NCBI RefSeq assembly: GCF_044647545.1
Contig: NZ_CP172818.1
DNA from: Escherichia coli
Lineage (GTDB): Bacteria; Pseudomonadota; Gammaproteobacteria; Enterobacterales; Enterobacteriaceae
Reading direction: 5' to 3' (one strand)
DNA: 64,000 bases
Part shown: piece by piece, positions 6,353 through 58,168 of the stretch
Numbering within the stretch: position 1 is the first letter of the stretch
How the letters are laid out: every line of letters starts with the position of its first letter
Notes under the pieces: model-generated
What the model was told of the DNA's origin: nothing
Seen by the model: the letters and a program-made list of their open reading frames with translations, nothing else
Database searches by the model: none
Translations under genes and position numbers: made by a program

Positions 6353-7019
6353 AATAAAGAAAACCTTTTAACGCCAAAACAAAAAAGTATTTCGTCGCGT
6401 AGTGTAAGCGATCACTTATTATATTTCCACAAAATTTAATCTATTTACAGTCCTGCGCGAGATTATTTCAGCTGTTATTTTCTGAAACTCTCAGAATAAT
6501 TTCAAGATTATATATTAGCCATTTTGATGAGTAATTTCGGTTATTTGTGAGCAGAGCGGCGCTCTCTGCTCGCTAATTCCGCAAGCCTGACAAAACAAAA
6601 ATGAATAAAAATGCAATTTAACCGAATAAATGGAAACACCCCTCACTGGTGCTTTCTGCTGTCAATGTACATTTTCTGGCATAAAAAATGCTGAAAATGA
6701 CCCGGTCACGACATACACCGAATTCTCTACGCTTATAGCGTTACCTCACCCCCAAACCTTCATGAGTGATAATAAAGGTAAACACATATCCAATTGATTT
6801 AATTAAAAATAAATTATATCGGCATGTAAAAATCCACAATGTACAAAAAACGCGCCGTTACGGAATATTTTATCTACAAAAACAGATTAAATAAAAATTT
6901 TTCACTAATTGATTAGTCATAGCCAGCGATATACGCTATGCGAAAATGCAGATGGCAATGAGATCCACTGCTTTCACCTCCATTAACATCCCATTACGCT
7001 TTTATTAAGGAGCATTAGC

Positions 7020-12323: not shown

Positions 12324-12582
12324 GGGGGTTATTTTCAAAAATATCACTACCCGCTGCAGGGAAATAATTCCCGCCAAATAGCTTTATATCACGCAAATAA
12401 TTTGTGGTGATCTACACTGATACTCTGTTGCATTATTCGCCTGAAACCACAATATTCAGGCGTTTTTTTGCTATCTTTGACAAAAAATATCAACTTTTCT
12501 CGATTTGCTCTCAGCCCTTATATCATGGGAAATTCCGGCGATTTGCTCACATCAATATTCATGCCACATTTGCCATCAGGGG

Positions 12583-20485: not shown

Positions 20486-22024
20486 ATGCAACAGCAAAAA
20501 CCGCTGGAAGGCGCGCAACTGGTCATTATGACGATTGCGCTGTCACTGGCGACATTCATGCAGGTGCTGGACTCCACCATTGCTAACGTGGCGATCCCCA
20601 CTATCGCCGGGAATCTGGGCTCATCGCTCAGCCAGGGAACGTGGGTAATCACTTCTTTCGGGGTGGCGAATGCCATCTCGATCCCGCTTACCGGCTGGCT
20701 GGCAAAGCGCGTCGGGGAAGTGAAACTGTTCCTCTGGTCCACCATCGCCTTTGCTATTGCGTCGTGGGCGTGTGGTGTCTCCAGCAGCCTGAATATGCTG
20801 ATCTTCTTCCGCGTGATTCAGGGGATTGTCGCCGGGCCGTTAATTCCGCTTTCGCAAAGTCTATTGCTGAATAACTACCCGCCAGCCAAACGCTCGATCG
20901 CGCTGGCGTTGTGGTCGATGACGGTGATTGTCGCGCCAATTTGCGGCCCGATCCTCGGCGGGTATATCAGTGACAATTACCACTGGGGCTGGATATTCTT
21001 CATCAACGTACCGATTGGCGTGGCGGTGGTGTTGATGACACTGCAAACCCTGCGCGGACGCGAAACCCGCACCGAACGGCGGCGGATTGATGCCGTGGGG
21101 CTGGCACTGCTGGTTATTGGTATCGGCAGCCTGCAGATTATGCTCGACCGCGGTAAAGAGCTGGACTGGTTCTCATCACAGGAAATTATCATCCTCACCG
21201 TGGTGGCGGTGGTGGCTATCTGCTTCCTGATTGTCTGGGAGCTGACCGACGATAACCCGATAGTCGATCTGTCGTTGTTTAAGTCGCGCAACTTCACCAT
21301 CGGCTGCTTGTGTATCAGCCTCGCGTATATGCTCTACTTCGGCGCGATTGTTCTGCTGCCGCAGTTGTTGCAGGAGGTCTACGGTTACACGGCAACGTGG
21401 GCAGGTCTGGCCTCTGCGCCGGTAGGAATTATTCCGGTGATCCTGTCGCCGATTATCGGCCGCTTCGCGCATAAACTGGATATGCGGCGGCTGGTAACCT
21501 TCAGCTTTATTATGTATGCCGTCTGCTTCTACTGGCGTGCCTATACCTTTGAACCGGGTATGGATTTTGGCGCGTCGGCCTGGCCGCAGTTTATCCAGGG
21601 TTTTGCGGTGGCCTGCTTCTTTATGCCGCTAACCACCATTACGCTGTCCGGTTTGCCACCGGAACGACTGGCGGCAGCATCGAGCCTCTCCAACTTTACG
21701 CGAACGCTGGCGGGGTCTATCGGCACGTCGATAACCACGACCATGTGGACCAACCGCGAGTCGCTGCACCATGCGCAGTTGACTGAGTCGGTAAACCCGT
21801 TCAACCCGAATGCCCAGGCGATGTACAGTCAACTGGAAGGGCTTGGGATGACGCAACAGCAGGCATCAGGCTGGATTGCCCAGCAGATCACCAATCAGGG
21901 GCTGATTATTTCCGCCAATGAGATCTTCTGGATGTCAGCCGGGATATTCCTCGTCCTGCTGGGGCTGGTGTGGTTTGCTAAACCGCCATTTGGCGCAGGT
22001 GGCGGCGGAGGCGGTGCGCACTAA
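20486..22024 (+). CDS. emrB: multidrug efflux MFS transporter (14-TMS DHA2 family)
   Basis: ORF track frame 20477..22024; start placed at ATG 20486 (MQQQKPLEGAQ...); 512 aa. Confidence 0.95.
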   Translation: MQQQKPLEGAQLVIMTIALSLATFMQVLDSTIANVAIPTIAGNLGSSLSQGTWVITSFGVANAISIPLTGWLAKRVGEVKLFLWSTIAFAIASWACGVSSSLNMLIFFRVIQGIVAGPLIPLSQSLLLNNYPPAKRSIALALWSMTVIVAPICGPILGGYISDNYHWGWIFFINVPIGVAVVLMTLQTLRGRETRTERRRIDAVGLALLVIGIGSLQIMLDRGKELDWFSSQEIIILTVVAVVAICFLIVWELTDDNPIVDLSLFKSRNFTIGCLCISLAYMLYFGAIVLLPQLLQEVYGYTATWAGLASAPVGIIPVILSPIIGRFAHKLDMRRLVTFSFIMYAVCFYWRAYTFEPGMDFGASAWPQFIQGFAVACFFMPLTTITLSGLPPERLAAASSLSNFTRTLAGSIGTSITTTMWTNRESLHHAQLTESVNPFNPNAQAMYSQLEGLGMTQQQASGWIAQQITNQGLIISANEIFWMSAGIFLVLLGLVWFAKPPFGAGGGGGGAH

Positions 22025-37422: not shown

Positions 37423-38380
37423 AGCACTACTGAACGCGGGACGTCAGACGTTAATGCTGGAGTTGCAGGAAGCAAGCCGTTTACCGGAACGTCTGGGCGA
37501 TGATTTTGTTCGCGCCGCCAATATCATCCTGCACTGCGAAGGCAAAGTGGTGGTTTCGGGAATTGGCAAATCGGGCCACATTGGTAAGAAAATCGCCGCA
37601 ACGCTTGCCAGCACCGGCACTCCTGCCTTTTTTGTCCATCCGGCAGAGGCATTGCACGGCGACCTGGGGATGATCGAAAGCCGCGATGTGATGCTGTTTA
37701 TCTCTTACTCCGGTGGCGCGAAGGAACTGGATCTGATTATTCCGCGTCTGGAAGATAAATCTATCGCGCTGCTGGCGATGACCGGCAAACCGACGTCACC
37801 GCTGGGCCTGGCGGCGAAAGCGGTGCTGGATATCTCCGTAGAACGCGAAGCCTGTCCGATGCACCTTGCGCCGACCTCCAGCACCGTGAATACCCTGATG
37901 ATGGGTGACGCGCTGGCGATGGCGGTCATGCAGGCGCGCGGATTTAATGAAGAAGATTTTGCCCGCTCCCACCCTGCTGGAGCACTGGGCGCTCGCTTGC
38001 TGAATAAAGTGCATCATCTGATGCGCCGTGATGACGCTATCCCGCAGGTAGCGTTAACCGCCAGCGTGATGGATGCGATGCTGGAACTCAGCCGCACTGG
38101 TCTGGGGCTGGTGGCGGTATGTGACGCTCAACAACAGGTACAAGGCGTCTTTACCGACGGCGATTTACGTCGCTGGCTGGTTGGCGGCGGTGCACTCACC
38201 ACGCCAGTCAATGAAGCGATGACGGTCGGCGGCACCACGTTGCAATCGCAAAGCCGTGCCATCGACGCCAAAGAAATCCTGATGAAACGCAAAATCACCG
38301 CCGCACCGGTAGTGGATGAAAACGGCAAACTCACCGGCGCAATTAACCTGCAGGATTTCTATCAGGCCGGGATTATTTAA
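37415..38380 (+). CDS. gutQ: D-arabinose 5-phosphate isomerase (SIS + CBS domains)
   Basis: ORF track 37415..38380, 321 aa; overlaps srlR by 8 bp. Confidence 0.95.
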
Positions 38381-39891
38381 TCCTTCAGCCCCAGACGTTT
38401 CGCCAACCGATGCAAGTTGGCGACGTCGGTTTCCAGCATCCGTGCGCTGGCAGCCCAGTTGTGATGATTTTGTGCCAGTGCCTGACGAATGGTTTCACGC
38501 TGGAACGCTTCTGTCGCTTCACGCAGGTTTTGCTTAACGATAGGCACCGCCGCCGCTTCTGGCGGCGGCAACGTCACCTCAGGAAAAGCAAAATGTTGCG
38601 CTTCAAGAATCACTTCATCGCCGCTGCGGGTCGCTCTCGCCAGCACCACCGCCCGATGAATAGCATGTTCCAGTTCGCGCACGTTTCCCGGAAAACTGTA
38701 GTGTTGCAGTAAATTTCGCGCCCCGGCACTTAATACCACGCGGGAGAGCCCCAGCCGCAAACGACACTGCTCGCAGAAATACCCCGCCAGCAGAATGACA
38801 TCATCGCCCCGCTCACGCAGCGGCGGCACCGAAAGTGGGAACACGCTCAGGCGATGAAACAAATCGGCGCGGAATCGCCCTGCCAGCACCTCTTCGCGTA
38901 AGTCGCGGTTAGTCGCCGCCAGCACGCGCACATCGACCCGCAAACTGCGGTCATCGCCAACGCGCTGAATATCGCCATACTGCAACACCCTCAGCAGCTT
39001 GGCCTGCAATGCCAACGACAGCTCGCCGATCTCATCGAGAAACAGTGTGCCGTTATCCGCCATTTCAAACTTCCCGCTGCGGTTACTGATAGCGCCAGTA
39101 AACGCTCCTTTCACATGCCCGAACAACTCACTTTCCGCCACACTTTCCGGCAGTGCGGCACAGTTGAGATAGACCAGCGGATTCACCGCCCTTGGCGAGG
39201 TTTCATGAATCGCTTTCGCCACCAGCTCCTTACCGGTTCCCGTCTCACCGCTGATTAAGACGTTGAGATCGGACGCCGCCACAATCTCAATCTCTTTTTT
39301 CAATTGCGTCATGCCTGGCGACAAGCCAATCATCTGCGTCTGTTTCACCGCTTCAAACGGCGCGGCATCGCCCGGCAGCATATTCTGGCTTTCCAGTTGC
39401 TCAATCAGCAACGCATTGCTTAACGCTCCCGCCGCCAGCGCGGCAATCAGGCGTAACTCTTCGTCGCTGAAAACATCGAACTGATCGGGTTGCATCCCGT
39501 CGAGCGTCAATGCGCCGATCAGGTTTTGCCCGGCAAACAATGGCAGACCAACGCAGGCGTGAACCTTCAGACTCTCCTGCCCGGGAATCAAACCGTCATA
39601 GGGATCGGGCAATTCGCTGTCTGCGGGAAAGCGCACCACGTCCCCGGCGCGGGCAATCGCTTCCAGCCGTGGATGCCCTTCCAGCGCAAAGCGTCTACCG
39701 AGTACATCCTTCGCCAGCCCGTCGATGGCAAGCGGAATAAACTGCCGCGAGTCATAACGTAGCAACGCAGAGGCATCACACTCCAGCACCTGACGCAGCG
39801 TGGTGATCAGGCGCTGAAAACGATCCTGATGACCAATCCCACGCTGCAATTCGATGGCGATATTCGCCAGCACATCAACGGAAAAACTCAT
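38377..39891 (-). CDS. norR: sigma54-dependent NO-responsive activator (GAF, AAA+, HTH)
   Basis: ORF track 38377..39891, 504 aa; GAFTGA motif present (KGAFTGA). Confidence 0.96.
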
Positions 39892-39903
39892 CTTTGCCTC
39901 ACT

Positions 39904-39959
39904 GTCAATTTGACTATAGATATTGTCATATCGACCATTTTATTGATAGTCATTTTGAC
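39904..39959 (+). promoter_or_regulatory. three NorR enhancer sites (GT-N7-AC) in the norR-norV intergenic region
   Basis: gtcaatttgac (39904-39914), gtcatatcgac (39925-39935), gtcattttgac (39949-39959) read from sequence; matches the described NorR site consensus. Confidence 0.8.
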
Positions 39960-40014
39960 TACTCATTAATGAGCACAATTTTATTTATAGAGTAAAAACA
40001 ATCAGATAAAAAAC

Positions 40015-40030
40015 TGGCACGCAATCTGCA
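40015..40030 (+). promoter_or_regulatory. sigma54 (-24/-12) promoter of norVW
   Basis: TGGCAC-gcaat-cTGCA with the canonical GG-N10-GC spacing, about 48 bp upstream of the norV ATG. Confidence 0.8.
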
Positions 40031-40077
40031 ATTAGCAAGACATCTTTTTAGAACACGCTGAATAAATTGAGGTTGCT

Positions 40078-41517
40078 ATGTCTATTGTGGTGAAAAATAA
40101 CATTCATTGGGTTGGTCAACGTGACTGGGAAGTGCGTGATTTTCACGGTACAGAATATAAAACGCTGCGCGGCAGCAGCTACAACAGCTACCTCATCCGT
40201 GAAGAAAAAAACGTGCTGATCGACACCGTCGACCATAAATTCAGCCGCGAATTTGTGCAGAACCTGCGTAATGAAATCGATCTGGCAGATATCGATTACA
40301 TCGTAATTAACCATGCTGAAGAGGACCACGCCGGGGCGCTGACCGAACTGATGGCGCAAATTCCCGATACGCCGATCTACTGTACAGCCAACGCTATCGA
40401 CTCGATAAATGGTCATCACCATCATCCGGAGTGGAATTTTAATGTGGTGAAAACTGGCGACACGCTGGATATCGGCAACGGCAAACAGCTCATTTTTGTC
40501 GAAACGCCAATGCTGCACTGGCCGGACAGCATGATGACTTACCTGACAGGCGACGCGGTGCTATTCAGTAACGATGCTTTCGGTCAGCACTACTGCGACG
40601 AGCATCTGTTCAACGATGAAGTGGATCAGACGGAGCTTTTCGAGCAGTGCCAGCGTTACTACGCCAATATCCTGACGCCGTTCAGCCGCCTGGTAACGCC
40701 GAAAATTACCGAGATCCTGGGCTTTAACTTGCCAGTCGATATGATAGCGACCTCTCACGGCGTGGTATGGCGCGATAACCCGACGCAAATTGTCGAGCTG
40801 TACCTGAAATGGGCGGCGGATTATCAGGAAGACAGAATCACCATTTTCTACGACACCATGTCGAATAACACCCGCATGATGGCTGACGCTATCGCCCAGG
40901 GGATTGCGGAAACCGACCCACGCGTGGCGGTGAAAATTTTCAACGTCGCCCGAAGCGATAAAAACGAAATCCTGACCAATGTCTTCCGCTCAAAAGGCGT
41001 CCTGGTCGGCACTTCGACGATGAATAATGTGATGATGCCGAAAATCGCCGGGCTGGTGGAGGAGATGACCGGATTACGCTTCCGTAACAAACGCGCCAGT
41101 GCTTTCGGCTCTCACGGCTGGAGCGGCGGTGCGGTGGATCGTCTTTCCACGCGCCTGCAGGATGCGGGTTTCGAAATGTCGCTTAGCCTGAAAGCCAAAT
41201 GGCGACCAGACCAGGACGCTCTGGAGTTATGTCGTGAACACGGTCGCGAAATCGCCCGTCAGTGGGCGCTCGCGCCGCTGCCGCAGAGCACGGTGAATAC
41301 GGTGGTTAAAGAAGAAACCTCTGCCGCCACGACGGCTGACCTCGGCCCACGGATGCAATGCAGCGTCTGCCAGTGGATTTACGATCCGGCAAAAGGTGAG
41401 CCAATGCAGGACGTTGCGCCAGGAACGCCGTGGAGTGAAGTCCCGGATAACTTCCTGTGCCCGGAATGCTCTCTCGGCAAAGACGTCTTTGACGAACTGG
41501 CATCGGAGGCAAAATGA
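40078..41517 (+). CDS. norV: anaerobic NO reductase flavorubredoxin
   Basis: ORF track 40078..41517, 479 aa; metallo-beta-lactamase-like, flavodoxin and C-terminal rubredoxin (CxxC...CxxC) regions. Confidence 0.96.
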
Positions 41518-42647
41518 GCAACGGCATTGTGATCATTGGTTCGGGCTTCGCCGCCCGCCAACTGGTGAAAAATATTCGCAAACAGGACGCCAGTATTCCA
41601 TTAACTCTGATTGCCGCCGACAGCATGGATGAGTACAACAAACCTGACCTCAGCCATGTTATCAGTCAGGGGCAACGTGCCGATGACCTTACCCGCCAGA
41701 CGGCAGGTGAATTTGCCGAGCAGTTTAATCTGCGCTTGTTTCCGCACACCTGGGTAACGGATATCGATGCCGAAGCCCATGTGGTGAAAAGTCAGAATAA
41801 TCAGTGGCAATACGACAAGTTAGTGCTGGCAACCGGTGCCAGCGCCTTTGTCCCGCCAGTGCCCGGGCGTGAGTTAATGCTGACGTTAAATAGTCAGCAA
41901 GAGTATCGCGCCTGTGAAACGCAACTGCGGGATGCCCGACGCGTGTTGATTGTTGGCGGTGGCTTGATTGGTAGCGAGCTGGCGATGGATTTTTGTCGGG
42001 CAGGCAAAGCGGTCACGCTAATCGACAACGCTGCCAGTATTCTGGCGTCGTTAATGCCACCGGAAGTAAGCAGCCGCTTGCAGCATCGGTTGACGGAGAT
42101 GGGCGTTCATCTGCTGTTAAAATCTCAGTTGCAGGGACTGGAAAAAACAGATTCTGGCATTCTGGCAACGCTGGACCGCCAGCGCTGCATTGAAGTGGAT
42201 GCGGTAATTGCCGCCACCGGACTGCGCCCGGAAACCGCCCTGGCACGACGCGCCGGGCTGACGATTAATCGTGGCGTTTGCGTCGATAGCTATCTGCAAA
42301 CCAGTAATGCCGATATTTATGCGCTGGGCGATTGCGCGGAAATTAACGGTCAGGTATTGCCGTTCCTCCAGCCGATTCAACTTAGCGCAATGGTGCTGGC
42401 AAAAAATCTTCTCGGCAATAACACGCCGCTGAAACTACCGGCGATGCTGGTGAAAATCAAAACGCCGGAATTACCGCTGCATCTGGCAGGCGAAACCCAG
42501 CGTCAGGATTTACGCTGGCAAATTAATACCGAACGCCAGGGAATGGTTGCGCGCGGTGTTGACGATGCTGACCAGCTTCGCGCCTTTGTGGTCAGTGAGG
42601 ATCGGATGAAAGAGGCGTTTGGATTGTTGAAAACGTTGCCGATGTAG
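41514..42647 (+). CDS. norW: NADH:flavorubredoxin reductase
   Basis: ORF track 41514..42647, 377 aa; 4-bp overlap with norV. Confidence 0.96.
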
Positions 42648-45645: not shown

Positions 45646-45793
45646 CAAATTCTCCAGCAATGACAGTTAATGCGCCGATACATTCACAAATCATGCCAGT
45701 TTTTAATTTACTGTTATTTAAAGAAATTAAATTCTGTAATGCAGGAAAAACGATGTCATCGACACTAGTGACGATGACATGTGTTGACAATGT

Positions 45794-57525: not shown

Positions 57526-57987
57526 TCATGCTGCCGGGCTTTGTCCCTTTACCAGTTGGCTTAAATTCACCGGCACATTGTTTTCAATGGCGGTGTATAA
57601 GCTGTCGTAAACGCCAGCGATTTTTTCGAGATAGTGTTCCAGAACCTGTTCGCGATCGCGGATGTTGACCTTGCCATCAATCATGCCGTCAATGCTCAGT
57701 TGCGCCTGCGCAATCCGCTGTTTGTCTTCACCCTCTTTCGTTTCGACGTAATACTCGATGGTGTGGCTGTTAAAGCCATCCGCCAGGGTGACGTAAATAC
57801 GAAAATGTTCAAAAAGGACGAAACAGAGTTCTTTGTCCGGCGCGCAGCTCATGGCGTGATGCAGGCGCGCTTTCGATAACGTGATCCCCTGAACCAGCGA
57901 ATTGCAGTAGATGTGCCACTGGTCCTGTAGGCGACGATGCCGCTGTGCGATGTAATCGGCTTTCTCGCTTATTTCCCAAATAGTCAT
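57526..57987 (-). CDS. hycA: formate hydrogenlyase regulatory protein HycA
   Basis: ORF track 57526..57987, 153 aa. Confidence 0.95.
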   Translation of the reverse strand: MTIWEISEKADYIAQRHRRLQDQWHIYCNSLVQGITLSKARLHHAMSCAPDKELCFVLFEHFRIYVTLADGFNSHTIEYYVETKEGEDKQRIAQAQLSIDGMIDGKVNIRDREQVLEHYLEKIAGVYDSLYTAIENNVPVNLSQLVKGQSPAA

Positions 57988-58022: not shown

Positions 58023-58040
58023 AAGCATTTTTTATGCCAA
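58023..58040 (-). promoter_or_regulatory. candidate sigma54 promoter of the hyc operon
   Basis: Minus strand reads TGGCAT-aaaaaa-TGCT with GG-N10-GC spacing, about 35 bp upstream of the hycA start; hyc is known to be sigma54/FhlA-dependent. Confidence 0.6.
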
Positions 58041-58152
58041 CTTTTAATTCATTGTTATTAAAACGATTTTTAAGCTAAAGATGAATTTCGTCGCCGTGTC
58101 GACGTGTCATTTCGACATCATCGACATTATTCACCGCAGGGATAATCAACAC

Positions 58153-58168
58153 TGGCACAATTATTGCT
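58153..58168 (+). promoter_or_regulatory. sigma54 promoter of the hyp operon
   Basis: TGGCAC-aatta-TTGCT, about 30 bp upstream of the hypA ATG. Confidence 0.75.

Follow-up and report, generated by a model that had tools for sequence, protein, structure and literature searches.

The locus described here raises the question of whether the DNA between two divergent genes of Escherichia coli, norR and norV, forms a complete NorR-dependent sigma-54 control region, and whether it could operate as published for K-12, in which the induction of norVW depends on NO, NorR and RpoN (PMC2831303, PMC8249747). An earlier reading made from the nucleotides alone (hereafter the sequence-only reading) had proposed three NorR sites upstream of a sigma-54 promoter, the architecture expected for NorR-dependent activation of norVW. 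We analysed the region within its window, which is the whole 64-kb stretch of DNA examined (64,000 nucleotides). On the evidence set out below we consider it almost certain that this DNA is the divergent control region of E. coli norR and norVW and that it works as published for K-12.

The locus and its cognate regulator

Positions 39892-40077 of the window comprise the entire 186-bp spacer between norR on the minus strand and norVW on the plus strand. The norR gene (38377-39891, minus) codes for a NO-sensing sigma-54 enhancer-binding protein of 504 aa with GAF, AAA+ and HTH domains, and its product scored 824.6 bits against the NCBIfam equivalog NF003451 NorR, for which the cut-off is 476. 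In the opposite direction lie norV (40078-41517, plus), the intact gene of the flavorubredoxin NO reductase (479 aa; 1047 bits against NF003954, with residues 1-479 of 479 covered), and norW (41514-42647, plus), the gene of NADH:flavorubredoxin reductase (NF003437, 685.6 bits). The norW start and the norV stop overlap by 4 bp, and norVW together span 40078-42647 (+). The gene order, srlR-gutQ-norR/norVW-hypF, is that of K-12. Of 5426 complete E. coli genomes, 5425 contained the locus, many of them in a copy 100% identical to that in the window. A search of 39600-40400 against Rfam at E <= 1 matched no family.

Both genes are preceded by candidate ribosome-binding sites. The block at 39897-39901, CCTCA on the plus strand and thus TGAGG on the minus strand, is the probable Shine-Dalgarno sequence of norR, as judged from its sequence and position; it is separated by 3 bp from the first NorR site and was kept in at least 80% of the 79 distinct orthologous sequences. 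The corresponding element of norV, GAGG at 40069-40072 (+), was read from the sequence and is conserved in orthologues.

When the region was compared with the norVp/NorR enhancer of K-12 MG1655 (Tucker et al. 2004; Tucker et al. 2010, PMC2831303), it proved to be the same locus, with 208 of 211 aligned bases identical. The three NorR sites, the sigma-54 17-mer, the spacer length, the leader and the flanking genes are all identical, and the three substitutions (T for G at 39941, A for G at 39972 and C for T at 39976) fall in none of the NorR sites or promoter elements. The NorR proteins share 496 of 504 residues (98%). One of the 8 differences, S482 for C, lies in the C-terminal HTH region, and the N-terminal residues 1-176, among which are the published iron ligands R75, D96, D99, C113 and D131, are unchanged. 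The cognate regulator is intact, and its DNA-binding domain is conserved relative to K-12. The architecture anticipated by the sequence-only reading is thus borne out by the gene identities, the near-identity to K-12, the unchanged sites and the K-12 literature. The control region is already known, and the copy studied here is nearly identical to the K-12 reference. Since norR-norV is among the best characterised sigma-54 enhancer-promoter regions, the locus has little discovery value; it is of use as a positive control, indicating that the architecture of a sigma-54 promoter and its bacterial enhancer-binding protein (bEBP) can be recognised from raw sequence.

Three NorR sites upstream of norV

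Three inverted repeats with a GT-N7-AC core are located in the norR-norV spacer: site 1, GTCAATTTGAC, at 39904-39914; site 2, GTCATATCGAC, at 39925-39935, which has the imperfect half-site CGAC; and site 3, GTCATTTTGAC, at 39949-39959. If +1 of norV is placed at 40041, site 1 extends from -137 to -127 and site 3 from -92 to -82. All three lie exactly where the sequence-only reading had put them. Its description of the copies as evenly spaced holds only approximately, as the centre-to-centre distances are 21 bp and then 24 bp, a 21/24 pattern that was kept in 75 of the 80 sequences of our footprint set. This set consisted of the window and 79 loci found through NorV alone, without the use of any DNA motif.

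The pattern GTCANNNYGAC gave 17 strand-matches in the 64-kb window, compared with 3.6 expected, and nowhere in the window except the norR-norV spacer did three of them occur within 56 bp. With a NorR matrix trained on the sites of 75 non-Escherichia loci, the three best matches in the window were site 3 (24.4 bits), site 1 (24.3 bits) and site 2 (19.3 bits), and the next-best reached 13.4 bits. Such a matrix scan had been suggested as a check of the sequence-only reading, and so had a comparison with the published footprint. In K-12, NorR recognises three inverted repeats built on GT-(N7)-AC, and its footprint, seen as protected or enhanced G residues, runs from -137 to -84 (PMC2831303). With +1 at 40041, these limits coincide with G 39904, at which site 1 begins, and with G 39957 in site 3, in agreement with the positions of the repeats.

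The functional requirement for the sites has also been established in K-12. The change of any single site to GG-(N7)-CC abolished the induction of norV-lacZ, showing that every site is essential, and hexamer formation was supported by a 266-bp fragment, which outperformed a 66-bp one (PMC2831303). The primers of the 266-bp fragment (PMC2941729) map without mismatch to window positions 39856-40121. By genomic SELEX, Shimada et al. (2021) found NorR bound only at the norR/norV spacer (PMC8249747).

Two isolated NorR-like palindromes were observed elsewhere in the window. One, GTCATTATGAC, at 20522-20532, scored 13.4 bits, and the other, GTCATTTCGAC, at 58106-58116 (9.3 bits), is situated between sigma-54 motifs at 58024 (hycA-like) and 58152 (hypA). 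The published genomic SELEX revealed no NorR binding beyond the norR/norV spacer.

The sigma-54 promoter and the norV start

Downstream of the three repeats we found the sigma-54 promoter CTGGCACGCAATCTGCA at 40014-40030 (+), with the -24 GG at 40016-40017 and the -12 GC at 40028-40029. Its core, TGGCAC-gcaat-cTGCA, occupies 40015-40030, exactly as read earlier, and is directed toward norV. It departs from the TGGCAC-N5-TTGCW consensus at one base (C for T before TGC). The pattern TGGCACNNNNNYTGCW occurred 3 times in the window against an expectation of 0.28; of the two matches other than norV, one corresponds to the hypA promoter in the list of Bonocora et al. and the other is at 57903-57918 (-). 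We then scored the window with a leave-one-out sigma-54 matrix, trained on all intergenic ChIP-seq sites of Bonocora et al. but norV (41 sites). The norV promoter reached 18.0 bits, compared with a training median of 15.9, and ranked 2nd among 127,968 window positions, the hypA promoter being the sole site in the window with a higher score. Induction of norV is reportedly lost in an rpoN mutant, a finding ascribed to Gardner in 2003.

Occupancy of this promoter has been demonstrated in K-12. Bonocora et al. (2015) reported a sigma-54 ChIP-seq peak, OS25, on CTGGCACGCAATCTGCA in vivo, and the norV promoter is flagged in that work as experimentally confirmed in EcoCyc (PMC4591121). The OS25 17-mer is identical to window positions 40014-40030. 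[quoted passage not shown]

The transcription start of norV is probably at 40041 (+). This position follows the motif centre by 19 bp and precedes the ATG by 37 bp, the latter being also the distance given for the predicted norV start (PMC4591121). This placement relies on secondary statements and on the geometry of the promoter, and 40043 fits too, including the footprint numbering if bottom-strand Gs were meant. The sequence-only reading had expected a start about 12 bp downstream of the GC element; the predicted and inferred positions follow the C of the -12 GC by 12-14 bp and are consistent with this expectation.

The enhancer-promoter spacer and IHF

Between site 3 and the promoter lies a spacer of 55 bp (39960-40014), in which the A+T content is 78%, compared with 47% for the window. 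[quoted passage not shown] From sequence and alignment, we tentatively place the IHF core at 39996-40008 (+; -45 to -33), where AAACAATCAGATA has 2 mismatches to the consensus WATCAANNNNTTR. In most other genera, and in the E. coli isolate AF3 described below, a T in this core restores AATCAA. A scan of the window allowing <=2 mismatches to WATCAANNNNTTR gave 470 matches against 465 expected, so that the E. coli core taken alone is at chance level. The orthologous position had 0-1 mismatch to the consensus in 67 of 80 loci, as read from the alignment. When <=1-mismatch matches to WATCAANNNNTTR were anchored on TGGCA, they were found at offset -19 in 59 of 80 loci and at -18 in 8 of 80, and any other offset was represented by at most 7 loci.

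The spacer of this allele contains a perfect 12-bp palindrome, CTCATTAATGAG, at 39962-39973, which is broken by the K-12 G at 39972. A hairpin beside site 3 was considered as a candidate structure, and apparent compensating changes were seen in some species, yet it was rejected since folding revealed no conserved structure: for the 27 nt after site 3 in 80 loci, the mean z was -0.03, with 5% of the values below -1.5. We likewise rejected an FNR-like half-site, TTGAT-AGTC-ATTTT, at 39943-39956. By eye, its second half agrees with the FNR consensus at 2 of 5 bases, A 39946 is the sole conserved base, and a report of FNR control of norV gives no binding site.

Conservation across Enterobacterales

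In the 80 norV loci of the footprint set, the NorR triplet was kept in 78; in addition to the 75 with the spacing of E. coli, three had 20/24 bp. The distance from site 3 to TGGCA was 53-56 bp in 79 of 80 loci and the TGGCA (-24) itself was invariant over all 80, while the sequence between the elements varied freely. The cross-species footprint thus provides a compact confirmation of selection on the number of sites, their spacing and the spacer length.

The -12 element lacked the canonical GC in 44 of 80 norV promoters (TTGAT in 34, TTGTA in 5 and others in 5). Two records in the set deserve a remark. A metagenome bin named 'Citrobacter sp.' contained a contig with a 100% E. coli-type norV as well as a Citrobacter-type one, which suggests contamination of the bin, and a record labelled Chryseobacterium carried an enterobacterial norV locus, suggesting a mislabel or contamination.

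Within E. coli, 5 of 5426 records fell in the 90-95% identity band, of which the blood-culture isolate AF3 (NZ_OZ547117.1; positions 301-466 of the locus sequence L082) was the one inspected. It has a 45-bp (21+24) deletion equivalent to window positions 39904-39948, which joins NorR sites 1 and 3, so that one NorR site remains. Because each of the three sites is reportedly required, we predict that norVW is uninducible in AF3.

The 21/24-bp spacing, the 53-56-bp spacer and the IHF core at -19 recur across about 80 Enterobacterales species, whereas the IHF core of E. coli is degraded and the -12 element of roughly every second other species lacks GC. A further reading of these comparisons, for which we see only a slim chance, is that the architecture is more rigid than the literature stresses and that, if such differences tune basal leakiness or inducibility, the three spacer SNPs of this strain or natural deletions such as that of AF3 could alter NO defence heritably.

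Alternative explanations

The loosest form of the motif, GT-N7-AC, is frequent (the window contains 210 matches), and the stricter GTCANNNYGAC occurs at 8 other places in it, which might lead one to regard the three repeats as chance palindromes in an A+T-rich spacer with no regulatory role. However, three GTCANNNYGAC sites within 60 bp did not occur once when the window was simulated 300 times with a first-order Markov model, 78 of 80 species have the repeats at the same positions and spacing despite variation in the intervening DNA, and each site is essential according to the published K-12 mutagenesis (PMC2831303). The three-site cluster is not due to chance, and a lack of regulatory role is scarcely conceivable. 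It could also be argued that the sites are only an operator for norR autorepression and that norV is transcribed from a sigma-70 promoter, for example TTGTCA-16-GATAGT at 39923-39950 (+). The NorR sites do start at a distance of 3 bp from what is probably the ribosome-binding site of norR, NorR is annotated in K-12 as a dual regulator and has been found to regulate norR as well as norVW (PMC8249747), and one sigma-70-like match is indeed present in the spacer. Yet this single match, compared with 1.3 expected, is at chance level; sigma-54 occupies the 17-mer in vivo (PMC4591121), and the open complex requires sigma-54 and NorR (PMC2831303). Autorepression can coexist with the activation model but is no substitute for it, and we therefore regard autorepression as the only role of the sites as extremely improbable. 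Our sigma-70 scan of the spacer for a norR promoter or an alternative norV promoter did not locate the norR promoter.

A different possibility concerns the extent of the enhancer rather than its function. The palindrome GTCAACGTGAC at 40115-40125, inside norV and about 75 bp after the start, is an exact GT-N7-AC match, and as a fourth NorR site it would place the enhancer on both sides of the promoter and aid the wrapping of DNA round the hexamer. Tucker et al. (2010) have proposed that flanking DNA wraps the oligomer, and the superiority of the 266-bp over the 66-bp fragment is in line with this (PMC2831303). However, the 266-bp fragment ends at 40121, inside the GTCAACGTGAC site, and the published protection is confined to -137 to -84 (PMC2831303). 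The palindrome is also absent from the top 12 matches of the NorR matrix. It falls within norV codons 13-16, its GT has a T at a third codon position where changes are synonymous, and GT and AC were both kept in only 20 of 80 species. The palindrome at 40115-40125 is likely a chance occurrence, and its action as a fourth site is very unlikely.

Proposed mechanism and relation to other systems

In the best-supported mechanism, which is the published one, the three inverted repeats of the GT-N7-AC type (about -137 to -82) would be bound by NorR, probably as dimers, and would jointly scaffold the AAA+ hexamer, with NorR pre-bound as an inactive oligomer. RNA polymerase containing sigma-54 would wait in a closed complex on TGGCAC-N5-CTGCA (40014-40030), and a bend made by IHF in the 55-bp A+T-rich spacer would allow the enhancer complex to contact it. 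The binding of NO to the iron of the GAF domain would then release the AAA+ ATPase and lead to the opening of the promoter, so that norVW would be transcribed from about 40041 and its products would reduce NO to N2O. The binding of NorR and the need for three sites, the occupancy by sigma-54, the binding of IHF and the sensing of NO were shown by others on K-12. The present analysis adds to this by identifying the locus, by showing that the motifs are statistically real and by documenting that their position and spacing are strictly conserved. We also infer that bound NorR, its sites lying at least 3 bp from the norR ribosome-binding site, lowers the transcription of norR, which is consistent with the dual-regulator annotation in K-12 and with the regulation of both norR and norVW by NorR (PMC8249747).

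The GT-N7-AC core and the dependence on sigma-54 are shared with norV of Salmonella, hmp of Pseudomonas aeruginosa and Vibrio cholerae and norA of Ralstonia eutropha (PMC2831303, PMC4601167), whereas according to the literature the target genes of NorR differ outside Enterobacterales. With generic promoters combining sigma-54, a bEBP and IHF, such as NifA-nifH and NtrC-glnAp2, the region has in common an upstream enhancer, an A+T-rich spacer probably bent by IHF, a -24/-12 promoter and an open complex driven by ATP. In contrast to these systems, NorR requires three adjacent sites, none of which is dispensable. It differs from NifA and NtrC also in being pre-bound in an inactive form, its ATPase being repressed by a GAF domain with a NO-sensing non-haem iron.

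Other sigma-54 motifs in the window

The matrix scan also revealed strong sigma-54 motifs elsewhere in the window. The third-best score, 17.6 bits, was obtained for CTGGCATAAAAAATGCT at 6676-6692 (+). The surrounding DNA is A+T-rich and, provided that window and K-12 are collinear, would be the counterpart of the stpA-alaE region. This motif does not appear in the intergenic-sense or intergenic-antisense tables, which form a part of the data of Bonocora et al. (PMC4591121). Other strong motifs were found at 58152-58168 (+), 58024-58040 (-), 57903-57919 (-), 45683-45699 (-) and 12551-12567 (-). Three of these five are identical to published sites, namely hypA (OS28), hydN (OS26) and ygaC-antisense (OA04), and the motif at 58024 is one base off that of hycA (OS27).
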